DNA of 63,751 nucleotides, counting the filler, from Dimargaris cristalligena (lineage: Eukaryota): NCBI GenBank assembly GCA_003614675.1. It is 28 parts of 28 records of this genome, joined end to end, with 100 filler letters (N's around TTAATTAATTAA, not from the genome) between each part and the next. Parts side by side here need not be neighbours in the genome. Positions count along the whole stretch, not along the records: positions 6,941 to 9,149 come from ML004305.1; 27 more parts are not named here. One strand, 5' to 3'. This document shows positions 6,941 through 61,807 of this stretch, piece after piece (position 1 is the first letter of the stretch; every line of letters starts with the position of its first letter). The notes beneath the pieces are model-generated. The model had not been told where the DNA came from. It saw only the letters and a program-made list of their open reading frames with translations, and searched no databases. Both the position numbers and the translations under genes were made by a program.

Positions 6941-7122
6941 TCCCCGGTTGTCCTAGTTGTCCCTATCTGAAGATCAGATAAGAATTGTCCCCGCCAAAGT
7001 GCGTGTTTCCCTTAGCCAGTTAGTTTTTCCCACTAGACTGAGGCTGCTCCAGTTGGCCCTGATAAGGTTATCGGGCTATATTACCTTGTGGTATTAATTG
7101 TGACCACAACACTTGGTAGCGA
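6941..7122 (+). mobile_element. 3' part of 5' LTR (ends ...CACAACA at 7111) and primer-binding site TGGTAGCGA (7114-7122) of a Ty3/gypsy element
   Basis: CA terminus, 2-nt spacer and a TGG-initiated PBS resembling the tRNA-iMet type, 113 nt upstream of the gag ATG. Confidence 0.7.
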
Positions 7123-7234
7123 TGCTACGTTCGTTTATATTTTTCTATTAAGATTATCATTTGGTATTTTCCGCCTAGTTTTGGAACCTCGTTGTATTTT
7201 TTATTTTTATTTTTTTTTATTATCACCGCCCACC

Positions 7235-8434
7235 ATGTCCATTGACCCCGCCCGCTTAGTTGCTACGATAGAAGAACTACAGGAGGTAGTACGTCAACAA
7301 ATGGAGCAGATCCAACAGCTCCAGGCCCAGCAAGCACAAACTGCTGAACAGACCACCCGGGCATTCAATAAATTTGGGGAGCAAATGGCCACAGTTCAGG
7401 GTGTAGTTACGGAGGTCAAGGACGTAGCTGCCGAAGCCCAGGGGGCTGCATCTAAAGCCCAAGAGACTGCTGCGGGGGCACAGGCAACTGCCCAACATGC
7501 CCAGCGCACTGCCCGGGAGTCCCAGAAAGCCACCGCTAATACCCAGGCTGCCTTGGGCGGGGTACAACAGGCTATTGCCAGTGAAGGTCAAGCACGGAGT
7601 ACATTAGAGAGAACTCTTGCAAATGAGCAGGCCGTCATTGCCCAGTTACAACAAGCACCAGTGGCCAATAGATCCAGTTCCTCTGTTCGAATTAAGGACC
7701 TACCTGAGTTTTCAGGTAACCAAGATGAGGACATTAGCCAATGGCTACGTATGGGCCGGTTGATGACTGAGGGCCGAATGGCCAGTGAGTCTGATCGGGT
7801 ACGCCATGTTGCTGCATCATTCCGAGGTCGTGCTATGAATTGGTACCTTAATGCTTTAGAGCATATACCAAATATCCTGGATTGGGGAGTATTTGCTGCA
7901 ACTGCAATACACGAATTTACAGACCCTCAAGCTACCCAGCGAGTTCGCATCCAAATTGCCAGTCTAAGATTCCATAGGGATATGGACCAATTTATTGATA
8001 AGTTCTTAGAACTTGTTAGTCGTGTTCCTGGTATGACCGATGAGGAGGCCTTACATTGGTTTGTCAACAAGTTACCCCGTGAGGTTGCTGTATTTGTTCG
8101 CAATGACAATCCCACTCGCCTAACTGAGGCTGTACAAAAGGCCCAGCATATTTTTGCATCATACAACCCGATGTATCAGCCACGCCACCGGTACCACTCC
8201 AATTCTAACAATGGAAGCCCACGCTTTGGAGGATCTGGCCCTATGGATCTGGATAATGTGTCCCGCTTACCCCCTGATGAAATGAGTCGTCTACGTCATC
8301 TGAAGGCCTGTTTTCACTGCAAACGAACAGGGCATATTAGCAGGTTTTGCCCTCAATGTCAGGCTCAAGTTCAGGCTAACATAACTGAAGGACAAGATGA
8401 GCAGCTGGGAAACGAGCACCCCTGGGCAGCCTAG
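7235..8434 (+). CDS. gag: Ty3/gypsy Gag (Q/A-rich coiled coil, capsid, CCHC zinc knuckle)
   Basis: CACC-ATG at 7235; LPEFSGNQDEDISQWL capsid motif, GPMDLD, CFHCKRTGHISRFC. Confidence 0.92.
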   Translation: MSIDPARLVATIEELQEVVRQQMEQIQQLQAQQAQTAEQTTRAFNKFGEQMATVQGVVTEVKDVAAEAQGAASKAQETAAGAQATAQHAQRTARESQKATANTQAALGGVQQAIASEGQARSTLERTLANEQAVIAQLQQAPVANRSSSSVRIKDLPEFSGNQDEDISQWLRMGRLMTEGRMASESDRVRHVAASFRGRAMNWYLNALEHIPNILDWGVFAATAIHEFTDPQATQRVRIQIASLRFHRDMDQFIDKFLELVSRVPGMTDEEALHWFVNKLPREVAVFVRNDNPTRLTEAVQKAQHIFASYNPMYQPRHRYHSNSNNGSPRFGGSGPMDLDNVSRLPPDEMSRLRHLKACFHCKRTGHISRFCPQCQAQVQANITEGQDEQLGNEHPWAA

Positions 8435-8452
8435 CCGGCCCTGTCCAAGGGG
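8407..8452 (+). promoter_or_regulatory. -1 programmed ribosomal frameshift signal
   Basis: G GGA AAC heptamer in the gag frame (8407-8413), 5-nt spacer, hairpin CCCCTGGGCAG/CTGTCCAAGGGG (8419-8452). Confidence 0.8.
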
Positions 8453-9058
8453 AATTATTAGCACTGTCATTCCCGGCCCCACTTGCATACACTAAGCCCA
8501 TTGCCCTACAGTATACCAAGGATGACCCCAGTATCCCAGACCTGAAATATGCCAATGACCAAGCTGTTGGTTTTGATCTACCCTGTCTACAGGCACAGAC
8601 AATTATACCTGGACAACCCCATAAGATATCCACTGGTATTCGGTTTGTCCCACCTCCAGGCTTCTATGTCCAGTTATTTCTACGGTCCGGGGCCAGTGCC
8701 TCTGGCTTAGCCTTAGCAGGGGGTGTAATTGACCCTGACTACCGGGGTCCAGTTATTAGTGTTATCCATAACATTACTACCAAAGTTATTACAGTGCCCG
8801 CTCATTCTTGTGTTGTACAAGGGGTATTGTTACCTCACCACCGGGCCCTGCTCCAGGTTACTAGTCAGCTACCCACTACTGAGCGCCAAGAACAAGGTTT
8901 TGGATCTACTGATGCCCTAGTGGCAGAAAGTAATGCTTATCCCCTCCTCCTCCTCCCAGGGACTAGCCAAGGGCACAAGGTTACAGCTCTCTTTGATCCT
9001 GGAGCTACTAATAATTTTCTATCGGCTAAATTAGCTGAAAGGTTAGGACTGTCCCTTC
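8413..9058 (+). CDS. pol: Pol 5' part in the -1 frame: dUTPase followed by an aspartic protease (truncated by insertion at 9059)
   Basis: Manual translation gives AVGFDL (8563), LRSG (8680), GGVIDPDYRG (8719-8748), VVQGV and ERQEQGFGST (8881-8910), then KVTALFDPGATNNFLS. Confidence 0.9.
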
Positions 9059-9149
9059 TGTGGTGAACTTACCACATTTTTTACCTACTTTTATTTTTTA
9101 TCTATTTTTCGCACTTATCGGAAGTATGCCCCTGACAAGTGAATGACCG
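9059..9149 (+). repeat. Repeat family A terminus (TGTGGTGAACTTACCACA...), inserted into the gypsy protease
   Basis: Same sharp TG terminus at 15869, 20511 and 31856, and reversed at 48062 and 61807, each with different flanks. Confidence 0.85.
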
Positions 9150-15868: not shown

Positions 15869-15958
15869 TGTGGTGAACTTACCACATTTTTTACCTACTT
15901 TTATTTTTTATCTATTTTTCGCACTTATCGGAAGTATGCCCCTGACGAGTGAATGAGC
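15869..15958 (+). repeat. Repeat family A terminus, nested in an LTR-B fragment (15758-15868)
   Basis: Near-identical to 9059-9149. Confidence 0.85.
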
Positions 15959-20510: not shown

Positions 20511-20562
20511 TGTGGTGAACTTACCACATTTTTTACCTACTTTTATTTTTTATCTATTTTTT
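20511..20562 (+). repeat. Repeat family A terminus
   Basis: TGTGGTGAACTTACCACATTTTTTACCTAC. Confidence 0.85.
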
Positions 20563-23227
20563 NNNNNNNNNNNNNNNNNNNNNNNNNNNNNNNNNNNNNN
20601 NNNNNNTTAATTAATTAANNNNNNNNNNNNNNNNNNNNNNNNNNNNNNNNNNNNNNNNNNNNATCTGGTAAAGGATTGGCGTCGATGTGACTTAATTCGC
20701 TATTCCATAGGTTAAACATATGAGTAGCCAATTCACCCGAATATATCCTTGCCAATTAATGAGTCGTTTTAATAGGCCAAATACGGCCCTCTCGGGTTAG
20801 ATCCTTCCAGCGAAGTAGGCCGCACTCAGATTTCGCACCGCAAAGAGTGTTCCCCGAGTTCGCTTGTCACAAGTCGACTATAATAGCTGCCAATTATGAC
20901 AAGACAGCCTCTACCCGCAGTTAGGCGAATAAGCCAAACATGAATAGCTCTCTATTTCTGATTAAACGGTAAAGATTAACATACACCATGAATTATTTAA
21001 GTAGTAAATCAATGGCTCAGCTTCTCAATCACCATTAGCGGTTCTTCCTTAAAATAGATTACTCAATGTGCAAGGAGGGGGGAGGGCGCAAGCCCAGTGG
21101 CGGATCATTGATGGATACACCTCATTTTCCAGCCCGATAGTCACTAAATATTCTTCAGAGTTACCCTTTGTAGTATATTAATTACTTTTCCCCCTTCCCC
21201 CCACTCTAAAGAGCAAGATGGCCCCTAAATGATCCCATCAGTATATGTCCAAGGGATGAGTGTGATCCTCGCTTAGGACTATGAGGCTGATTTCCAAATA
21301 ATAAAATGGACCAGTGCGTGTAATGTTAATTAAACATAAGTGCGCTAACTTAAATAGATTTCCACTATAGAATGGGGTGTGAAAAGAGGCCGGAGTGGCA
21401 TGCTTAGGATAAAGCCCCCAAGATGGCGTGGCTCTGAGACGTATATTGGGCAGCGGATGGGGCGCTTCGCAAACAGAGGTTAGAGGGTGCCCACAGGTTT
21501 GGCACAGAGCAGAAAGAGTGCAATAGAAGGGAACGCCCTCCATGAGCCGTAATATAAGCGCTTTGAATAGGGGGAGCAAATGGCGCTCTACATTGGTTAC
21601 TTCATGGGTGGGGTATATGTAATGCTGGGCGGCCCCACATGTGATGTGCCAGGCTAGGAGAGATGTGCGGTTGACGCACCGCCTATCTCAGGCTGCTTCG
21701 CCGCCTTGGCTGAGGTTCCCAACGCGAAAGGTTTCGGGATGTTCAGGGACGCGGATTAGGTGGTCTCGAAGGTAATGTAGCTCATAGTAGACGTAGGCTA
21801 TAAACGTAGGAAACAAGAAAATCGAATTGCTAAAGGGCTCAAAAATAATACTAGCGAAAATAATAGCGATTTTATTGAAAAATGTGTAATGGTATCGAGT
21901 AGAAAATTTGAGCTTCAATTGGTAGACGATTTTTTGTTTACTTCGCAGGATTCCATCGTTTTTATATGCAATTGCGAAACAATATGAACATGCTAGTTAC
22001 GTTTGCAAAAGTAGGTATAAACAAATTGGTAATATACTATGCCGGTTAAATTCGTTGGCAATACATCAACGATAAAAGAATTGCAAAATTATTAATCATA
22101 GTGGTGATATAAAAGAAATCCGTCGCTATTGATGTTGATATGATAAACTGCACCAAATATATAACTGATGAATGAGCCATGCGCGGGGTATAATATCAAC
22201 CGCTAGCAATCAGTCATGTCATTCCGGACGGCACTAGATATAGGCCACTGTTCAAATTATTAAGTTGTCCCAGATCGCTGCCATAAAATGCCATGAAGCT
22301 ACCGATATTTTCCAGCTACCCAAGAATTTTATACTGGCCATTTTTTCGCCAGAGGGGTGTATAGCTAGCTAGTCAGGTATGATACTAAGGCCCCAATTCC
22401 TTTGCAAAACAATATTCTGCGTCGTATTTCTAGTAAATATAATTATAAATTACTCATGAATATTTCGTACTTTATTAAATAGCTAGTATATTGCTAGTTC
22501 AAATGGAACTAGACGACGCTAAATATATTTAAGTCATAAATGTGATTAATAAGCATTCCTGGGTATAAGCTTTGTCAAATAACTAGGGGTACTAGCATAC
22601 CCATAAAGGCCCCATGGTTTTATTGCTGCTACTGAAGGTCAATTTGTACATCCCAGCTTTCAGAAGTAACCAAGTAGCCACTTTATAACAGCTTGTGTGT
22701 TTTATCTTGGGGCAGTGTCAGCCCTTCTAATCTACCTTAATCCAGANNNNNNNNNNNNNNNNNNNNNNNNNNNNNNNNNNNNNNNNNNNNTTAATTAATT
22801 AANNNNNNNNNNNNNNNNNNNNNNNNNNNNNNNNNNNNNNNNNNNNAGGGCGGGAGTGTGTGTGTGTGCGTCTACACCGTCGACAACGCCAAATGCGATA
22901 ATGATAGCGGCAACAAGCAGTGGCAGTGGCAGCAGTGACGGTGGCCTAGACCGTCAAGCAGCGAGATGGTATGTAGGAAAAGTAGAAAAGAGGAAAATGA
23001 AGCGTGCGTGTGTGTGCATGGCTTATTTGCCATAATGATGATGTGCGTGATTTACCTCACATGCACACCCATCGCTGGTCATTGCCTCATGAAATGAGAA
23101 TACCAAACAGGGAGAGCAAGCATGCCTTGGCTTCCTTGTTCTCCTCCTTCCCACTACTACCGCCACCACCACCGCTACTACTACCACCACCGTCTATTGC
23201 ATTCTTCTAGCGCCATACTACTTCGAC

Positions 23228-24886
23228 ATGTCCACGCCCAGCGATAATGAGGATAAGACTTCAGATACACCGCTGACCCTGCAGGAATTCCTTGTGGGTG
23301 GGTTGCGTGCTTGTATATTGTGTGCATGGCTCGTTGCTTATGTGCAGCATACTCGCTGATAGAGCTGGAACAGCGGGCGGCACTCACCGTCAACACATGC
23401 GATGCCTATGCGGCGGATAAAGCACGCTGCCGCACACTACTCGATGATCTACTCGACTTCGCCGAACAGTATGAAGGTGGCAGTGAGCATGCCGATGATG
23501 GTCGTTCTATTGCTTACTGATGTACATGTGCATGCTTACGTACGATGTAGATGAATGGTTCGACGATGAAGAGACACGCACCTATGTCGCCTATTTAATA
23601 CTGACATCCGGCGCGTTCCATGACAACACAATCCGAGCCAGTGCATGCCAGTTACTACGGGAAGCAGTCATACAGCTACATGGCATGACCACGGTTAGTA
23701 GCTATAGAAGCAAGGAGGAATGAGGCATGGCTAATCGTGCTGCGGGCAGGGACGACTGCCGGTGCGGCGCGTGTTGCTAGTGAGCGAGCTGTTGCTCGTC
23801 ATTGTTCGCTCGAAGCATGAAGTGCTTATGGTTGATCCATTGGCCGCGCCCGATTCACTAGACGCTGAATTGGGCAAGCATCGTACAGACATGATTGCTG
23901 CATGCTTGGCCCTACTCCAGTGTGGATGGCAAGGTAGCAATGGGCGAGAGGGGCAATGGGTCATATGACATGGCAGCCATCATCTAATACGTCTTTTCCT
24001 ATGGCTAGCCATACCACGGCTACTGTTAATGATCATGCACCTTCTCTACGAGTTGTGTCGATTAGATCTCATACATGAAGAGCAATTGGGTATGCAGATG
24101 GCTGCTTGTACGCGTATGATGGCGTGCTCTCATGTATGTATACATTCTATGATGATGCTAGATGGATCATTGATCAATGGCTTGCTCGATATTGTCGACT
24201 CCACCTGCTATGATCCAAATGATGAGATCACAAATGCAGCCATTCGCTTGCTGGTAAGTAGGCATTGCATATGCGTGCATGTATGTATGTAGATGCTTGA
24301 CATGGAATGTGGCAGGTTGCGCTGCACCACATGCTCATCCAGCATGATCGCACGCGTCTCGGTATCCTATCCGACAATCTGATTCTCGGCGAGTTGGCAC
24401 GTCGCCCCGAGTCGAGCCGTACATTCGGCGAGTGCTTTGTATTTCTACTGAATCGTGAAGGTGAGCCATATCCTGCCAATGTATGTAAGCATAGATTACT
24501 TATGCATCCTATTAGATAATATTGCCATCAAGTTCATGTGTGTTGAGCTGCTATGGAGCATTCTGCAATCGCCGCCGCTATCCAACTACTTTTACGACAA
24601 TGATCGCAATGTGCTCGTGGACATTCTACTGCAGAATATCGCCGATCTCGCCGATGACACGGATCAGGTGCGCGCACTATGCCTCAACACGCTGGGCGCC
24701 CTCATATGCTACACCGAGTATCGACAACGCCCGCACAAGCTGAGCCAGGTGCGTCGACTGCTGCGGGAGCTGCTCAACACGGGCAGGGTCAGTAGCGACT
24801 TTCATCTGCTTGCGCGGAAGGTGCTCGGCGATTGCACGGAAGCACTGGCCGAGGCGAGTCGGCATGATGCACCATCCCGTGCATAG
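23228..24886 (+). CDS. LDB17: Ldb17/SPIN90 (DUF2013) Arp2/3 activator; ~8 exons with short GT-AG introns
   Basis: Spliced reading includes LLYELCRL, TFGECFVFLLNRE and NYFYDNDRNVLVDILLQNIADL...RALCLNTLGALI...EYRQRPHKL. Confidence 0.78.
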
Positions 24887-26546
24887 CATCCATTGTCGTC
24901 GGCAACATAGGATGGACATCACAGCATAATAAGGCTTTATATCAATTAATGCATGCTAATTCTAGTATCGTCTATCAATGGGCACTTTAACATTACACAA
25001 CACACATACAGTAAACAGAATCATTACAGTCTTTCTAATNNNNNNNNNNNNNNNNNNNNNNNNNNNNNNNNNNNNNNNNNNNNTTAATTAATTAANNNNN
25101 NNNNNNNNNNNNNNNNNNNNNNNNNNNNNNNNNNNNNNNTTTTTTAAATAAATAAAAATTTTATAAGATATTAAATTATTTTATAAATATAAATATTATA
25201 TTATTAAATTAAAGTATTAATTTTTATAAATAATTAATTAAATAATAAATAATAATTAATATATATTTCCTATTTTTTAATTTTAAATTATAATTAAATT
25301 ATTTTTAAAGTTTTTAAAATATTAATAAAATAAATAATATAAATTATTTTTAAAAAGATTTATAAAACATTTAATAATTAATTATTATAATATAAATAAT
25401 ATAAATAATATTAATTTAATTTTAACTAAATAAATAATATTTTAAATAATTTATAATAATATTTTAAATAATTTTATTAAATATAATATAATTTTTTATA
25501 TCTTTCTATTTTAATTATTTTATATTAATATTATTAAGATAAAAAATATTATTATTTATAATATATATTATACTACTTAAAATGATTATAATATATAAAA
25601 ATATTTTAATAAATAGAACATAATTAAAAATAAAAGTTAAATATATTATATAAAGAAATTATAATAAACTATATAAATAAAATAAATAATTAATATATTT
25701 TTAATAATTTTAATGATAATATAAATAATTTAATAATATAAAAATATAATAAAATAAATAATAATTGTTTTATTTTTTTTATTAAAAATAATTATAAATC
25801 TGCTATGCAGATTCTTTTCAAATTTTTAATTTAAAATAAATAGAAAAATAATAATATAAAAATTATATAAAATATTTAATATCTTAAAAATAGTTAATAT
25901 TGATTTTAAATATACTATAATATTATTTAAAAATATAATAAAATTTAATAAATAATATAGATAAAAATAATACTTTAATTAAAAAATTATATATATTTTA
26001 AAATAGTTATTATAATTATAAAAATATAAAATAAAAAATATTATATAAATAATTTAAAAATATTTCTTATTATAAAAATTATTTATATTTTAAATTATAA
26101 TTTTACTTAAATTTAGTAAATATATATAATAGAAATAGTTATTAAAATTATTAAAATAATATAGAAATAATATAATAATTAATATAAAATATAATATTTA
26201 GAATTAATAATATTAATTAAAAAAATTATTTATCGGAAACTTCGAAGACATCGATGACTTAAATAAAAATTAGATAAAATATTAAATATTTTTTTTTTAA
26301 TTATAAAAATTTTTATAGAATTTATTAAATAGTCACCGATGTAATCGATTAATTTATAGTTTATATTATATTTTAAGGGGGGTATTAAGTATTAAAATAT
26401 AAATAAAATTTATTTGGGAAGGATATTAATTTATCCTATAATTTATGAACCGTAAACAGTATCTATAGGAAAAGTATAAATATTTACAATTAACAAGTGT
26501 TACACACTTATAAAAATAATAAAAAATATTTAAAACTTAAATAATA

Positions 26547-27329
26547 TTAATTATTTACTTTTGTTAATTTATTATTTTCAACATATGGAACTAAATTTAA
26601 AATATTTCTATTAATTGGAATTTCTCTAAAATTCAATTCATCCTTATATAATTTAATTAATAATTCATTAGTAACTTCCATACTATCATCAATATCAGCT
26701 AATTCGCCATTTAAATAATGTTGATAAAGTCCTAATAAACCTTTAAAAGATAAATTGTTATTAATATAATCAATACCCTCTACAAAACTATTTTAATCAG
26801 ATAAATCTAATTTATTTTCATTAGATTTATTATTAGAAATATTAGATAAATTATTAGAATTATTAATTAAAATATTAGTTAAAGTCATTTCTTGATGTAA
26901 TTCTTTTCTTCTTACATCTTTCCAACCTAAACTTTTAATACATTAATCCTGTAATGAATTACTAAACTTATTTAAAGAAGTTGGAGTATTACTTCTATTC
27001 AAACAATAATGAAAAAAATTAGAAAATAAGTGAGTTTCTTTAGGACTCTTCTTATTTCCTACATAAGAAAAAAAATCTTTAGAATAAATTAAATTATCAG
27101 AAGCCCAATTCAATAAAACATTTGTATGTTTAACCGTAGATGGTGATAATTATTCATTTAAACTATTAATATTTTCTCCAAATAATCTAAGATTTTCTAA
27201 AGGATTAGCTAATACCCAATTTATAAAACTTGATAATGAATAAGATAATTTACCTTTTGGTTTACCATCCATATCTAAATAAAAGAAATTAAGATCTCTT
27301 TCAGAAGGTATATTTTCAAATTTGAAATA
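26547..27329 (-). pseudogene. C-terminal part of a D5/P4-family primase-helicase-like protein with three in-frame TAA
   Basis: Manual translation: FKFENIPSERD...GKLSYSLSSFINWVLANP...NVLLNWASDNLIY...YVGNK...HLFSNFFHYC...PTSLNKFSNSLQD*CIKSLGWKDVRRK. Confidence 0.6.
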
Positions 27330-27844
27330 TTNNNNNNNNNNNNNNNNNNNNNNNNNNNNNNNNNNNNNNNNNNNNTTAATTAATTAANNNNNNNNNNNNN
27401 NNNNNNNNNNNNNNNNNNNNNNNNNNNNNNNATCTATCTTTTCAAATAAAGTTCAGTTTTCAAGGATTTGATTTCAGTTCTTTACAAAATGAAGTAAAAT
27501 AAAAAGAATAAAAGAATGTAAAATCAACTTCCAGTTGAAGTCTTCAGCTGATACTGAGTAAAAACACTGGGTGAAGTTAAGAATAGATATTTATTCTGAA
27601 AAATAAAACTTATCTCAAAAGTAACTTGCCATTTTAAGGGCTGACTGGGGTACTATATATAAAATCGGGTTATAGACTAAACTTATGTTATGACTCTCAG
27701 ATGTCATCCTTAGATGGATGGCCAACCATAAAACCACAAAGGGAAAAACTGGCTGGGTCTTCAAGTTTGAACTTTGTACCAAAATAGCTAAATAAAATGG
27801 AAAGTGGAAATACCTCAAATCCACTGAGGCATTTATGGTAACTG

Positions 27845-27891
27845 GATAAGGATAAGGATAAGGATAAAGATAAGGATAAAGATAAGGATAA
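27845..27891 (+). repeat. (GGATAA/AGATAA)n hexamer tandem repeat within a degenerate repeat region
   Basis: About 8 tandem units; the surrounding 27540-28170 resembles 62995-63620. Confidence 0.8.
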
Positions 27892-29723
27892 GCTTTAAAA
27901 CTAACCACTTTGTTCCAACATGAGAGGGTATTCCTTCCAACTCAGCTGGAATCATAAACACTAACAATGTGGAAGTAATCATTCAGTCAGCAGGACTGGA
28001 AATAGGCAGAGTTGAAAATAAGATCAACTAGATAAGTGGTTTCCAAATAAGTATTTGAAGAAGCTTCTGTTTGTTTGGTGTGTGTTGGTGTCATGTGGCA
28101 AGAGGAAATGGTTGGTTATTCCCATGGAAGGAGAAAACCGTACCTGCCCATGGCAGTACAGGTGACATCCCATATCAAGAAATTCTAATACATATTTCTG
28201 GGGATATCTGAAGCACCCCTTAATGGGAAATTTCAAACCCATGACTCCAAGAGACATTAAGTCCAGCAGATTCACCCTAGTATATCTCACCTGACTATAA
28301 AAGAAACACTATTTATACCTATTGCCATTTACAATAGATAGGCATTCAATTTCATCATGGTAAAAAGCTGTATTGGGAATTCCAATTTACTCCCAATCCC
28401 GGTAATGGTACTGAATCCTCCTAAAATGGGTTTTTTGTGAGACTCTACCCCATAGAAAAACCAGCATTGCTGTTGTATCTGGGCACTTGCTTGGAACAAA
28501 GGAGAAGGCCAAAAAAGGCAATGCAACAAGTGAGGGAACATGTGTATAGAAAAATAAAATAGTATGGAAAGGGGCATACAAGGTATTAGAAGGTCATATC
28601 AGGAATGCATGAAGTGGGATATTCTAATGTTAATTAGTGAATTTTCTTATGAGCGAACTATAACTATGGTGGGTTGAGTAATATAGATTTATTGTATGGA
28701 ATAAGGTGAATAAGTAATAATGAAGATACTGGCAATTGAGTGATTAATAAGTGAGTGGGGTTGATAGTCATCTAGGGAGCTCTGTCTTGGTGGGCTATTT
28801 CTTCCTTTTTATATTGGTGAAAATACATGGGCCAAGTAAGGATGTTGTGGCTGTAGTAATGTCAGGTTCTCCTCTAAGGGGAGTCATTCCCAGATGGATG
28901 GGGTTCCACCCTGACTATATGTGTGTCGCCTTGTTCTCCTTAGCCCATTGCTAGTGCCACAGTCAGTTTGGCATTAACACTAGCACTCTTTGTTTTTGAC
29001 TAGTTGGAGATATTGCGGGAATGGCTGTGTTATTCTTGACTGCTAATGGGGTGTGTCGCCCCTCCTAATCCAACCTAATCCATCTGCTAATGATTGCCAT
29101 CATAGCAGACCGTATAGTGCCATATTGTACCCCTGGTCCTAATGGGACCAGGCATCATATATATCCTCTCACTGGCTGGACCCCCCTGGAGTTCGCACTA
29201 CTCACTCCTAGGTGATCTTAGTATCTTCCAGTTCCCATGGAAGCCTCCGCTCGTACGAGGACCACCCAGCCCTCCCTATTGTTATCTTAGTTATGTAGTT
29301 TCCCCTTGGGACCTCCCTCGGAGTAGTCCCCCATATATATATAACCGGGCCCCCCATGGGGACCGGTGTGGCAAGGTGGAGTGTCCCCTTGATTGCCACA
29401 GCTACAAATTATTACTATTTGACTATTATACTTATATACAAGGTATGAAGCGGCTTTTTTGTCTGGTATACCCAGTTTTTTTCCCTTCCCTTTTAACCCA
29501 TTCTTTCCATACGATTTTTCCTTTAATTTTATTTATATTTCTATTGGTGGATGCATACTATCCCTATGATTGGATATGCATATTCATGCTTGATTACTAG
29601 TGGTTATTTGATTTTATTCTCTCNNNNNNNNNNNNNNNNNNNNNNNNNNNNNNNNNNNNNNNNNNNNTTAATTAATTAANNNNNNNNNNNNNNNNNNNNN
29701 NNNNNNNNNNNNNNNNNNNNNNN

Positions 29724-29950
29724 TTCTTTATACCTCTGAAGTTGTGGTTGCCAAGAAAATGGTCCTTTTGAGCTTCCAAACAGGTATTTCTATTACTTTG
29801 GTTTAAACTGGTTTTATTTTATTATAAAAAGTATTATATTTTTAAAGAATTTCATAGAGTGACTAACCAGTTCACCTGGAGAAGCCACCCTGCCCTTTTT
29901 GATATATTTTGTTGTTCATTTTAGTGGCTTGATACCACCACACTGTGACA
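29724..29950 (+). repeat. Repeat family E 3' terminus (...GTGACA); copies at ~52635-52854 and 59306-59359
   Basis: Shared GGAGAAGCCACCCTGCCC...TAGTGGC...CCACCACA...GTGACA end with differing flanks; LTR-like. Confidence 0.7.
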
Positions 29951-30404
29951 CCGGTCTGGTGATTTCCCCAGTTGTCCTGTAAGAATCCCCAACCTGCCGG
30001 TACCAAATGTTCCCATGACCTCCCCAGTAGCCAAGCCACTGAGTTTATTAGAACAAACTTGTTCAGAACTCAATCAAAACCAGCAACACCACCGACGTCC
30101 CCAATGTTCCCAGCCAACAACATCAAGTGACCCAGGACCACCAGTGGTTATTCCAACAATGGCATCAAGACCAGCTACTACTTTCCGTCACCCCCGAATA
30201 ACCTAGATGCTTGATTTATTTCCTGATATATAAATAAGGGGTAGTCACCCAACATTAATAAACCAGACTTTTGATGCCCTGTTTCTTGCCTTTAAGATAA
30301 CCGATTCTTTTGTCGATTTTTACCAGACGTTTATTACTGTTTAAACTTTTATTTCTACTATATTCCCACTGTTGCACAACAACAAGGTCACCGGGGGTCT
30401 CGCT

Positions 30405-31855
30405 CAGATGAAGTAGAGTTTTATTTAAAGTGAATCTCAGGCAGGCGACCTTTTGGTCATAATTACTATCCACAGGGAACATGATAATGGATAGGTAGCT
30501 CAAAAACCCTCAAAAGCTACAGATGTAGAGGGAAAAGACAGAAGGTAGAATAATGAATAGACCCTGGGAAGAAACCAGGTCCTTATGACAACCAACCCAC
30601 TTAGCTGGACAGGGGTTGTTATTTTTGTCAGTATGGAGGGGGGCCACAGGACAAGGTCACCACCAAGGCAGAAAAATAATAGCCATTAAACTAAGCAACT
30701 AGCCTAAATAGCAGGGGAGGGGGCAGGTAGCCTAGAGGCCAGGGAGGAGGTCCACATGGATCCAGAGTCTTCATCAGGGAAGTCCAAGTTAGGCCAGTAT
30801 AGCCTCTCAATAAGGAGTAGGATAGCCAGCATGGGTTGCCAATAGGCACAGGGATGCTTAGAGGACTTGGGCAAGGAGGAAAGGGCATGGTCTAGGGGGT
30901 TTACCCCCTCAGGATGGGGTGGCATGGATTGCCAGAGGGTCTGGGGAATTTCAGGGCAGAAGGGGAAGTGTCTCCTCTTGGTCTCATCAGTACCACAGGG
31001 GCAGGGGTGGGGAGTACCAGGTAGCCAGTTCAACCTCCACCTCAGTATTCTTCTCTTCTCTAATCTGGTAGAGGGAAGGTATAGTATGGGATCAACCCCC
31101 AGAGGGGGTCTGCAGGCCTTGAGGAGGACTTGTTTGGGGATCAATGAGGTATAGTGGGCTACCCTAGCAGTCTAGATAGCAGCCCTGACATCCTTAGCTA
31201 AAGGATCAGGAGGCAGAGAACAAAAAAGAGGAGATTTGGAAAGGTCACTAGTATATCTAGTAGTATGCAGGACAGAGACAAGAAGGTGTAAAAGGGAATT
31301 AGGTGGTAAGGTATTATATCTAAGGTAATACTTGGCAGTAAGGGTCTCTACCCTAATGGCTATGGGTGGAAGGTGTGAAATATGTCTAAGGACAGAGGTA
31401 GAACCAGACTTATAGGCCCCAACCAGTATTCTTAGGCAGGACCCTTGTATCCTTTCCAACTTTTTCAGTTGGCTATTATTCCAGGTAGAGATGGCTAGGC
31501 CATACTCCATAACTGGTCTGATAAGGGAAGCATAGAGCCTGGAACTAAGGTAGAGGTTAAAGCCAGATTTGTTAAGACTAATGTGGGAGAAAGCAGAGAG
31601 CCTCTTAATAACCTTAGGGGTAAGGTAATCTAGGGGAGTATTAGTAGAAAGGCCAGAGGTAAGGAAAGGAACTCCTAGGTAAAGGAATGAATCAACTGGG
31701 GGGAGAAGTTCACCATAGAGGGAGAAGGAGTAGTGGGAAGATGGGCAGAGTACAGCACATTTTGTAGGGCTCCACCGGTAGCCAGTGGCTAAGGAATGTT
31801 CCTCAGCCAACTTGAGCATCCTGGTAACAGCTGCCACTGAGCCATATAGGGCCAC
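30405..31855 (-). mobile_element. Non-LTR retrotransposon (LINE) copy 2, with one TAG at 31172-31174; cut at 31856 by family A
   Basis: GYRWSPTKCAVL, FLYLGVPF, IRPVMEYGL, RWRLNWLPG; 3' UTR matches copy 1. Confidence 0.9.
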
Positions 31856-31915
31856 TGTGGTGAACTTACCACATTTTTTACCTACTTTTATTTTTTATCT
31901 ATTTTTCGCACTTCT
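31856..31915 (+). repeat. Repeat family A terminus inserted in the LINE RT
   Basis: TGTGGTGAACTTACCACA... begins exactly where the LINE ORF breaks. Confidence 0.85.
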
Positions 31916-32078
31916 NNNNNNNNNNNNNNNNNNNNNNNNNNNNNNNNNNNNNNNNNNNNTTAATTAATTAANNNNNNNNNNNNNNNNNNNNNNNNNNNNN
32001 NNNNNNNNNNNNNNNTTCCTTAGAAACGTAATATATATTTATATATTTAGATAGGTGTATAAATAAGGAAGATACCAG

Positions 32079-34306: not shown

Positions 34307-34689
34307 CCCTGTTTCATGTGGTAGAGTTGAGCATGTAGTTGGGTTACTTTGGTTGAGGTAGTTTTGGCATACTGGCTCTCCAAGAATATCCACATATCTG
34401 ATGCAGGACTTTCAGGATTGATGTTATTGTGGATTGACTCACAGGTTGCTTGTCTGATGAGGTAGGTGGCTCTGTAGTCAGCCAGTCTTTTCTTTTCATA
34501 GTTGAGGTCATCTGTTTGATCCTTGCCTAATTTTTCCAATTTGTTCTTGTCCTTGATGAAACCTGCTTTTATGATATACCACATGTTCTCCATGATGAGG
34601 AGGGAAACCATATCACCTACCCAGGTCTTGTAATTGGGATCATGGAGAATAGGGAGAGGGATAGTGGTATTTGAGCTAAAGCTTGCCAT
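34307..34689 (-). CDS. gag: Ty1/copia Gag N-terminus, partial
   Basis: PILHDPNYKTWVGDMVSLLIMENMWYII...ASDMWIFLESQY. Confidence 0.78.
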
Positions 34690-34792
34690 ATTGGGAGAGA
34701 TGGAAGGATGGATGGATTGACTTATCCTAGTTAAAAGAGAAAAAGAGTATAGTTAAGCTTAAATTTTAATAGAAAGTTTTTTGGATGGATAC

Positions 34793-41171: not shown

Positions 41172-42818
41172 ATCCCCGAAGCTGACATTCGGGCCGTACT
41201 CGGCCAACCGGCCCATCCCTTGGCCAGCCAGACCCTCATGCTACTGTATGTACTCTCCTACTGCGACTACCTCGCCACCAACATTCTCAAACCGGCGGCG
41301 TTGGCGGTCAACCCGGGTCAGCGCGACCCCATGAGCTGTATCCCCTATTCCGATAACCTGGTTGACCAGCTCCCCATCCGCCGTATATTAAATTACATAA
41401 CCGATAGGGTAGCTTACGACAGCATATACCCCGAACTGGTGGCCCTATGCCATTACCAGGCCCCGGAGACCTTCGACATCAAGAGCGTGGTGATGGAGAA
41501 TTATTGTCGCCAGCAGGAAACATTAGTCTTTCCCCAACTCCACGCCCGACTATCCCGGGACGCCGTGCAGCGGGCCGTACCCACGAGTGTCGAACTGGCC
41601 GCCATCTCCACCATGCCCGAACTTGGGCCTGCGCTTTTTCAGGCTCTTCGCCACCCCCACTCGGCGTTGCCGGTCCTCAAATACCTGGCCACCGTGGACA
41701 CGGCCCAACTGGTCCCCTGGGTACCGGATATCATCGGAACTTGCCTTCCGCTGTATTTGGATGCGCGATTCTCATCGGAAACCACCTATCAGTTCCGGGT
41801 CATTTGGGAGATTATCCATTTTTCTGTACCCCGGCAGGTGGAAACGTTAACGGTCAACAGCTGGCGGCGTACCTTGGACCGCAGTCAGCCGCCGTGGACC
41901 CTTCAGGATCTTTGGCTGGACCCATTGCTGCTGTTCCGCTGCGACCCGTTGGTCCTACGCCACCCGGATTTCTTCAACCTGTTTTTGCAAATCCTGGGCG
42001 TCTTTCTCATCATGTCACGGCATAAACTGCGGGCCAAACACGCCCAGCGGGGTCCCGGTAAGGGTCGCTTCAAAGACGCCCACCTTAATGCCCTCCTCTA
42101 CCTCCAAGACACAAATGTGCTCCAAATGTTATTGACCATCTGCAGCCAGCTGGTCAGCTCCTCGGCGGGAGCCTCTGATACGGACTCTGCACGGGCCTGC
42201 CAAAACCTGATTTACGACTTTCTACACCAGGCCTTCATCGAGAATCGGTTGGTGTGTAAATTATTGCACTTCCAAACCTTCGACCCGACTCTTCTACCCT
42301 TATTGGTGGAACACATCCCCTCCATGCATATTTGCTTTGATTTCATCGCCGAACTGCTGGCTCAGGCGACGTACGACCGGCAGATTTTCGGACTCCAGTT
42401 GGCGACCAGCTTATTGGAAAAGTACCCCATGGCCCGGAACCTCAACCTTATCCGAGAGACACTAATCCCACGTACCCAAACCCTCCTGGTCAAGTTCCCC
42501 TTGGCTGAGTCCCATGTAAAAGTGCTGTATCCGGTGGTCGACGCCATCACTCGGATAGGCGAATCGTACCCGCAGCTGGCCCCGGAGTGCAAGACCCTGC
42601 TGCTCGTAGCCCAGACCGTGTCCAGCAAGGGCGTTCAGGAAGCCACGACCCACGGTGTGCTTTCGACAGCAGGATCTGGGAATGGCGTGTTCCCGACCGC
42701 TGCCACTGCGGGAGGTTCGGCTCTAAATAAATGTAACTTCACTCTGGAGGAGGCCAGCGAGTTTCGCCAGTTTGTCAACCACGCCCTTGATGTCGTAGGC
42801 AAACGAAGTCACCACTAG
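41172..42818 (+). CDS. INTS2: Integrator complex subunit 2, C-terminal half
   Basis: DQLPIRRIL, DPLLLFRCDPLVLRHP, ALLYLQDTNVLQMLLTIC, FLHQAFIENRLVCKLLHFQTF...IPSMHICFDFIAELL match recalled INTS2 motifs. Confidence 0.85.
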   Translation: MPEADIRAVLGQPAHPLASQTLMLLYVLSYCDYLATNILKPAALAVNPGQRDPMSCIPYSDNLVDQLPIRRILNYITDRVAYDSIYPELVALCHYQAPETFDIKSVVMENYCRQQETLVFPQLHARLSRDAVQRAVPTSVELAAISTMPELGPALFQALRHPHSALPVLKYLATVDTAQLVPWVPDIIGTCLPLYLDARFSSETTYQFRVIWEIIHFSVPRQVETLTVNSWRRTLDRSQPPWTLQDLWLDPLLLFRCDPLVLRHPDFFNLFLQILGVFLIMSRHKLRAKHAQRGPGKGRFKDAHLNALLYLQDTNVLQMLLTICSQLVSSSAGASDTDSARACQNLIYDFLHQAFIENRLVCKLLHFQTFDPTLLPLLVEHIPSMHICFDFIAELLAQATYDRQIFGLQLATSLLEKYPMARNLNLIRETLIPRTQTLLVKFPLAESHVKVLYPVVDAITRIGESYPQLAPECKTLLLVAQTVSSKGVQEATTHGVLSTAGSGNGVFPTAATAGGSALNKCNFTLEEASEFRQFVNHALDVVGKRSHH

Positions 42819-47913: not shown

Positions 47914-48062
47914 GTCAAGGGTATAAAATATAATAATAGAAAAAACAATATAATAATGAAAATGGAGGAAAAATAACTATACTCATCAGGGGTATACTTC
48001 TGATAAATATGAAAAATGGATTAAAAATAAAAGTAGGAAAAAAATGTGGTAAGTTCACCACA
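47914..48062 (-). repeat. Repeat family A terminus (reversed)
   Basis: ...ATGTGGTAAGTTCACCACA; matches 61633-61807 apart from an internal deletion. Confidence 0.85.
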
Positions 48063-61579: not shown

Positions 61580-61807
61580 AGGGGCAGTGTGAATGCAGGG
61601 GTATTATCCGGTCAGGGGCAGGGGTGCATCACAGTCAAGGGTATAAAATATAATAATAGAAAAAACAATATAGTAATGAAAATGGAGGAAAAATGACCAT
61701 ACTCATCAGGGGCAGGGGCTCATTCACTCGTCAGGGGCGTACTTCTGATAAGTGTGAAAAATAGATAAAAACTAAAAGTAGGTAAAAAATGTGGTAAGTT
61801 CACCACA
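61580..61807 (-). repeat. Repeat family A, longest visible piece, with internal TCAGGGG(CAGGGG) sub-repeats
   Basis: Ends ...GGTAAGTTCACCACA. Confidence 0.85.

Follow-up and report, generated by a model that had tools for sequence, protein, structure and literature searches.

In betaretroviruses, the gag-pro region is expressed by a −1 frameshift from gag, and a dUTPase is encoded first in the new frame and the protease (PR) after it (Hizi & Herzig 2015, PMC4531489). Domains of the same kind have been described in long terminal repeat (LTR) retrotransposons of fungi. In Postia placenta, they are found at the amino terminus of Pol (PosPlaTy3-3), at its carboxyl terminus (PosPlaTy3-4), and in the interval between PR and reverse transcriptase (RT) (PosPlaTy3-5), and LTR elements seem to have gained dUTPase independently (Novikova et al. 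2010, PMC2864245). Among dUTPase-bearing fungal elements, those of basidiomycetes and Tuber are already in print, and the species table of Novikova et al., as far as it is shown, contains no zygomycete. Fungal chromoviruses have a dUTPase to which the betaretroviral enzyme has been likened (Llorens et al. 2009, PMC2774666), bdelloid elements carry a dUTPase between PR and RT (Rodriguez et al. 2017, PMC5408684), and a preprint on Entomophthora muscae reports that Pfam dUTPase is enriched alongside retroviral domains (10.1101/2023.09.13.557621). Retroviral dUTPases are assigned a role in limiting uracil (PMC4531489, PMC2864245), and one retroviral dUTPase-related gene is reported to be required for replication though its protein has no activity (PMC4261571). 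Here we analyze what is very probably a Ty3/gypsy element with a dUTPase between Gag and PR, located on one contig (positions 6941-9149) of a 63,751-base stretch of DNA, which we refer to as the window.

The window (1-63751) is made up of 28 contigs of 2,075-2,215 bases, in roughly descending order of length, with N44-TTAATTAATTAA-N44 between them. Since the contigs are merely joined by linkers, adjacency across a linker is without meaning; the retroelement is confined to a single contig of 2,209 bases, and its features are collected in Table 1. We consider it highly probable that this contig carries a truncated copy of a Ty3/gypsy (Metaviridae-type) element, in which an LTR and a primer-binding site (PBS) are followed by gag, with a capsid and a CCHC knuckle, and then by dUTPase and PR in the −1 frame, with the mode of expression proposed below.

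Table 1. Features of the retroelement contig, numbered along the window
Feature	Position	Strand	Details
3' part of putative 5' LTR	6941..7111	+	contig begins within LTR; terminates ...ACAACA; high depth
PBS-like octamer TGGTAGCG	7114..7121	+	direct reading; two bases past LTR end
gag open reading frame	7235..8434	+	ATG 7235, TAG 8432-8434; 399 codons + stop
Ty3-type capsid	7688-8164	+	gag residues 152-310; Pfam Ty3_capsid, E 1.4e-11
CCHC knuckle	8309-8350	+	pattern CX2CX4HX4C; Pfam zf-CCHC, E 8.5e-4, 19.7 bits
5' part of pol, no ATG	8401..9058	+	−1 frame, open from 8401
Slippery heptamer G GGA AAC, candidate for −1 ribosomal frameshifting	8407..8413	+	gag zero frame
Possible stimulatory stem-loop	8419..8452	+	5 nt past heptamer; minimum free energy −19.9 kcal/mol
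dUTPase domain	8536..8910	+	pol residues 46-170; Pfam PF00692, E 9.3e-20
dUTPase motifs I-V	8563-8580, 8683-8691, 8719-8748, 8812-8820, 8881-8910	+	all five present
N-terminal third of retropepsin-type aspartic protease	8956..9058	+	residues 186-218; Pfam Asp_protease_2, E 1.5e-5
Unrelated abundant dispersed repeat, starts TGTGGTGAACTTACCACA	9059..9149	+	outside element; ends contig

The dUTPase and protease frame

A preliminary description of the locus had proposed a fungal Ty3/gypsy element with dUTPase between Gag and PR, an ATG-less −1 frame open from 8401, and the five motifs of trimeric dUTPases within it. All three proposals were borne out. The frame is open to 9063 (221 codons, no ATG), and neither the 399 codons of gag nor the 219 pol codons up to the point where the element breaks off contain a stop or a frameshift. 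The dUTPase profile PF00692 was matched at 71.2 bits over positions 4-128 of 129, i.e. at near full length, and each of the five motifs was located (8563-8910). Motif I (AxGxDL), motif II (RSG), the aspartate of motif III (VIDPDYRG), and GFGST of motif V are kept in the window copy. A sequence search against solved structures returned 56 dUTPase chains at E <= 1e-3, the top one being the dUTPase of feline immunodeficiency virus (FIV; 4.4e-15), with that of Mason-Pfizer monkey virus (M-PMV) at 5e-8. An AlphaFold model based on a 7-row alignment had predicted local distance difference test (pLDDT) values of 84-94 across residues 31-160, and its top Foldseek matches were trimeric dUTPases of human, viral, and bacterial origin (E 1.7e-12, target-normalised template modeling score 0.83-0.94). 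The predicted structure has the beta jelly-roll fold of the homotrimeric dUTPase class.

The statement that an aspartic protease directly follows the dUTPase held in part: the PR match lies in the same open frame and begins 15 residues past the dUTPase, but it comprises the first third of the domain only. The score, 26.1 bits against a cutoff of 24.3, comes from profile positions 2-34 of 90.

Relative to gag, pol is read in the −1 frame, and the two overlap at 8401-8434, over 11 codons. Inside this overlap lies G GGA AAC, the sole in-frame heptamer of the X XXY YYZ type across 400 gag-frame codons; the chance of a lone heptamer falling in the 11-codon overlap is roughly 3%. We compared the contig with assembled contigs of two sequencing runs, X1 and X5, which come from two independent studies and have one common organism label, with respect to word depth and variants. 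No differences at the heptamer were listed among the variant contigs of either run. A search with Rfam at gathering thresholds found tRNA only, and no known frameshift element, in the window. The position of the heptamer suggests −1 ribosomal frameshifting, and a Gag-dUTPase transframe product including the nucleocapsid (NC), which the preliminary description had put forward, is plausible because a canonical slippery heptamer sits in the overlap.

We propose that some ribosomes shift one base backwards at G GGA AAC, eleven codons ahead of the gag stop, and thereby make a Gag-dUTPase-PR-(RT-RH-IN) polyprotein, where RH and IN stand for RNase H and integrase. As part of this fusion the dUTPase would be packaged in the virus-like particle, entering it either as a Gag/NC fusion or after cleavage. 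By analogy with retroviruses, the packaged enzyme may hydrolyse dUTP, and less uracil would then be placed in the cDNA by RT.

Upstream of the frame, 6941-7111 and the octamer TGGTAGCG are read as the putative end of a 5' LTR and the PBS; the octamer is putatively complementary to the initiator tRNA-Met 3' terminus, in the manner of Ty3. Summed word depth at 6941-7111 is ~10-50 times that of the internal part (~29,000-31,000 vs 2,556 in X1; ~22,000-32,000 vs 622 in X5), and numerous variant contigs run off into dissimilar sequence at 7097, 7111, and 7113. The 3' LTR, polypurine tract, and target-site duplication were not found on contig 6941-9149.

In gag, the capsid match is well above threshold and that of the CCHC knuckle is slightly below it (Pfam cutoff 20.8 bits). 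No retroviral Gag family was matched by Pfam at E <= 0.1; with a Ty3-type capsid and no retroviral Gag match, the element is not a member of Retroviridae. Residues 1-150 of gag (7235-7684) are rich in A and Q (32 A, 27 Q) and coiled-coil-like, forming an unusual N-terminal extension ahead of the Ty3 capsid; no Pfam family scored above threshold in these 150 residues. A homologue search with gag at near lengths gave one match (26% identity) among 8,000 scored candidates, a number that the A/Q-rich N-terminus may have lowered by displacing relatives; the sparse matches are weak evidence of isolation. The gag part of P0004, a metagenomic polyprotein described below, is 23% identical (E 1e-13).

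Integrity of the contig and state of the coding sequences

With a length of 2.2 kb, a repeat at its end, and a highly fragmented assembly as its source, the contig might owe the order gag-dUTPase-PR to chimeric assembly, or the dUTPase might be a host gene that happens to lie beside a retroelement. The preliminary description had named a chimera as a possible outcome. In X5, however, one contig spans 7236-9058 whole, and in X1 the overlapping contigs 7236-8747 and 8718-9082 do so together, at 99.3-99.6% identity to the window (X5 record 15, 13 differences in 1,823 bases; X1 record 5, 7 in 1,512). Since gag, dUTPase, and PR are contiguous in contigs of two independent studies, the arrangement is not an assembly chimera. 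The dUTPase has no ATG of its own and is in one open frame with PR, the frame opens 34 bases ahead of the gag stop with the slippery heptamer in the overlap, and the same order recurs in P0004, P0055, P0095, P0086, and L020. On the strength of the two-study contigs, the ATG-less common frame, and the recurrent order, both the chimera and the neighboring host gene were rejected, and we regard them as extremely improbable.

Pieces of the element were also seen in X6 and X7, two runs with a different organism label (organism B). They are short, identical or near-identical to the element at 7474-7821 and 8292-8505, and have a depth of 2-3.4. They could stem from a mixed culture, from carry-over, or from an element that both organisms have, and their share is too small for claiming presence in a second species.

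The 3' end of the element is set by a repeat. From 9059 on, depth in X1 rises to 4.4e5-8.7e5 compared to ~2.5e3 for the element, i.e. more than 100-fold, and at 9058/9059 dozens of contigs come together whose upstream sequences are dissimilar. Further copies of the repeat are present in the window at 15869-15956, 20511-20561, 31856-31913, 47986-48062 (−), and 61720-61807 (−); these five are 51-91 bases long, always start at the equivalent of 9059, and mostly lie at contig ends. The sequence beyond 9058 is an unrelated repeat, and therefore the stop at 9064-9066 is not one of the element: this candidate for its own stop codon was rejected, the depth jump and the convergence at 9058/9059 placing it within the repeat. 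The rest of pol is missing on the contig because the repeat abuts at 9058/9059, inside PR. The repeat itself opens with a small inverted repeat (TGTGGTGAACTTACCACA), followed by GCCCCT-rich units; an LTR, a miniature inverted-repeat transposable element, or another class are candidates for its nature.

Several observations weigh against an intact element working in the proposed way. The window contains a single partial LTR and no second copy, and the contig, which breaks after 34 protease positions, has no RT, RNase H, or integrase. The downstream structure that could assist frameshifting, and with it the transframe fusion, is not significant: 37 of 200 shuffled sequences folded equally well as the stem-loop (z = −0.88), which makes it a weak hint of a frameshift stimulator. 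The active-site triplet of PR (8995-9003) reads D-P-G, in the context D-P-G-A, and not D-S/T-G; in an alignment with P0095, P0048, and P0086, D-S-G or D-C-G stands at this place. The dUTPase is divergent, scoring 71 bits compared to 92-143 for nine other scanned dUTPases linked to Ty3/gypsy elements, retroviruses, or integrases. In its motif IV, CVVQ takes the place of the RIAQ or KIAQ of relatives, the basic residue and the alanine being absent, and motif V has RQ instead of RG. Variants of the dUTPase change R95 to Q in motif II (X1) and carry E161K and R162H in motif V (X5), at positions 8684, 8881, and 8885. When gag was taken as translated as far as the proposed slip site and pol from there on (8406 was scored as gag L391P and is silent in pol), 11 of the 19 placeable differences altered a residue, and purifying selection is therefore not clearly indicated. 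Taken together, the low score, the motif deviations, the variants, and the D-P-G triplet make it a serious alternative that, in the copies at hand, the domain is inactive or the family is decaying.

In the first form of this alternative, the element is as described, and its dUTPase no longer hydrolyses dUTP, serving instead, for example, as a structural spacer, in Gag-Pol trimerisation, or in a regulatory interaction, or having no role. The bit score and the deviating motifs IV and V speak for it, as do the substitutions R95Q and R162H, both at conserved arginines, the second of which recurs in the closest relative, P0040, where the arginine of motif V is likewise H; the reported retroviral case of a dUTPase-related gene required in spite of an inactive product (PMC4261571) is in line with it. 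The window copy, on the other hand, retains the conserved residues of motifs I, II, III, and V listed above, and its fold is predicted at high confidence. We treat loss of activity as possible rather than probable.

In the second form, the family is dead or non-autonomous: a decaying, truncated relic is amplified together with the flanking repeat and makes no product. Here the two runs point in different directions. The X1 contig 8718-9082 has element-like depth (2,425 vs 2,556) and enters the repeat, the sole continuation listed for this run; yet it crosses the junction by just 24 bases, fewer than the 31 required for calling a bridge. In X5, a 4,930-base contig covers 7236-9058 and proceeds for another 3,068 bases that are unlike the repeat and that presumably hold the remaining pol. 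The D-P-G triplet, for which no difference is listed among X1 or X5 variants and which is thus common to all of them, and the frequent non-synonymous changes fit a dead family, but the 399 codons of gag and the 219 of pol are uninterrupted, and the variants differ by less than 1%. We find this alternative doubtful as well, and retain as the preferred reading a truncated copy of a Ty3/gypsy element with a −1 frame dUTPase-PR module.

Relatives of the dUTPase and the host fungus

An exhaustive HMMER search with the dUTPase against 1.84 billion representatives gave 12,608 matches at E <= 1e-3, of which 787 reached <= 1e-10 and none reached <= 1e-30. The best match was P0040 (RKP33507.1; 47% identity), annotated as 'dUTPase-like protein, partial' of Dimargaris cristalligena. 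When dUTPase and PR were searched together at longer lengths, 37 matches were obtained, with a top identity of 41% and no close full-length pol among them. A metagenome scan with a 2-row alignment yielded 80 loci, again with a top identity of 41%; tblastn with P0004 on these loci detected parts of retroelements in seven, and dUTPase before PR in none of them. Pfam scans of three more loci showed dUTPase then PR in L020, a copia-type element in L001, and a giant-virus contig in L005, where the major capsid protein of nucleocytoplasmic large DNA viruses and a family B DNA polymerase adjoin the dUTPase. Three of the matching proteins (P0041, P0042, P0078) have three tandem dUTPase domains per chain by Pfam, resembling a covalently fused 'trimer'.

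A tree of 67 domains and 134 columns was built with IQ-TREE from the query, 37 grouped rows, the seven nearest in a first tree, and 22 drawn at random; four rows that had long branches or an unusual composition were omitted, and the bootstrap had not converged completely. P0040 is the first to group with the query (100/88), followed by P0141 (RKP35490.1, also D. cristalligena; 95/83). Judged from this placement, the dUTPase belongs to a lineage common to Dimargaris cristalligena. The two relatives have the same unusual VIDPDYRGP, VQG(V/L)L, and Q-x-GFGS forms as the query and are known only as dUTPase fragments, of 120 aa (RKP33507.1) and 112 aa (RKP35490.1). A 98/96 branch separates the 26-row set of the query from the dUTPases of P0004, P0055, and P0095, which come from elements with dUTPase before PR. 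This split, from few columns, is suggestive of repeated acquisition or of domain swapping. The independent capture at the betaretroviral position proposed in the preliminary description is compatible with the branch, as is a domain swap; the position itself turned out not to be new.

Domain order was compared in a set of matches that is not a random sample because the query contained a piece of PR. In this set, dUTPase precedes PR in the five elements named above, lies between PR and RT in P0065, L033, L072, and L074, between RT/RNase H and IN in P0022, P0027, P0029, L047, and L053, and after IN in P0017, P0067, and P0333. L032 and L057 begin at the dUTPase, with RT next, and PR precedes dUTPase in the caecilian P0012. 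Many additional dUTPase matches were of copia type.

The remaining contigs of the window code for ordinary eukaryotic proteins, among them RhoGEF, Spt5, a dynein heavy chain, and Integrator subunit 2. A fragment of Spt5, on a neighboring contig, is 61% identical to the protein of Dispira simplex and 59% to that of Dimargaris xerosporica, compared to 46% for the next match, Basidiobolus; a protein atlas places it only as 'Eukaryota, fungi or plants'. Based on these identities, we place the host, a fungus, in Zoopagomycota close to Dimargaritales, outside the Dikarya, where such elements were described. Coding stretches are long and uninterrupted (699 aa in Spt5, 729 aa in dynein, and the match to Integrator complex subunit 2, which has no introns at 41172-42815 (+), 3.5e-74), which suggests an intron-poor genome. 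Of tRNA genes, the window contains just one, tRNA-Leu(CAG). One contig (25140-27331) has a G+C content of only 11.8% compared to 37-60% in all others, and could be of mitochondrial origin or consist of a simple AT-rich repeat. A fragment of a copia-type gag at 34309-34752 (−) on a separate contig (Retrotran_gag_2, 2.4e-6) indicates that the host fungus has a second LTR-retrotransposon superfamily.

Comparison with known systems

The preliminary description had implied that the place of the dUTPase is new, and had named other gypsy families with the order gag-dUTPase-PR as evidence that would refute novelty only. The implied novelty did not hold: the position is not new, because PosPlaTy3-3 already has its dUTPase at the amino terminus of Pol (PMC2864245), and the five elements with dUTPase before PR found here have the same order. 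The host lineage is new, and the frameshift detail possibly so. A literature search, conducted largely without subscription journals, Repbase, and GyDB, found nothing on elements of Dimargaritales or Kickxellomycotina.

One could go further and posit a metavirus lineage specific to Kickxellomycotina, common at least to this fungus and Dimargaris cristalligena, that made its own dUTPase capture or swap separately from the remaining elements with dUTPase before PR, converged on the full betaretroviral module, including the −1 frameshift at a canonical slippery heptamer, with an NC-dUTPase packaged at Gag-Pol stoichiometry, and is perhaps still active in its host. We find this extended scenario speculative and rather unlikely. 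As it stands, the truncated Ty3/gypsy copy extends the dUTPase-bearing elements of this superfamily from Dikarya to an early-diverging fungal lineage, and offers a compact example, outside retroviruses, of a module consisting of gag, a proposed −1 frameshift, dUTPase, and protease. If the signal in the tree holds, the arrangement with dUTPase before protease arose more than once, in support of the published view of repeated acquisition (PMC2864245). The find raises no new question, since the layout and the likely role have already been described.

Several known systems share parts of the organization. Tuber Tmt1, PosPlaTy3-5, and the bdelloid elements Juno, Vesta, and TelKA have a trimeric-type dUTPase inside Pol (PMC2864245, PMC5408684), but in these it comes after PR and before RT, and here it is ahead of PR; for Tmt1, the position between PR and RT that was given in the preliminary description agrees with PMC2864245. 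P0004, a polyprotein of 1,767 aa encoded on a metagenome contig in ENA, contains a Ty3 capsid, CCHC, dUTPase (494-621), PR (626-743), RT, RNase H, integrase, and a chromodomain. Over the part present in the query its domain order is identical; it differs in being one fused frame with no frameshift, and its dUTPase is 36% identical to that of the query and lies across the 98/96 branch.

The order gag, −1 frame, dUTPase, protease agrees with that of betaretroviruses (PMC4531489), as the preliminary description had stated. In both mouse mammary tumor virus (MMTV), with its p30, and M-PMV, the dUTPase opens the PR frame, ribosomes enter that frame from gag by −1 frameshifting, and an NC-dUTPase transframe protein is made (PMC4531489, PMC2238898). 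The present element differs from them in having a Ty3-type capsid and no retroviral Gag, and in its search against solved structures FIV dUTPase outscores that of M-PMV. PosPlaTy3-3, like the present element, is a fungal Ty3/gypsy LTR element with dUTPase at the amino terminus of Pol, upstream of PR (PMC2864245); its host is a basidiomycete and not a member of Zoopagomycota, and the likeness is to its published description. The element is real but a fairly ordinary find; it would work like the betaretroviral module, and its domain order equals that of PosPlaTy3-3.

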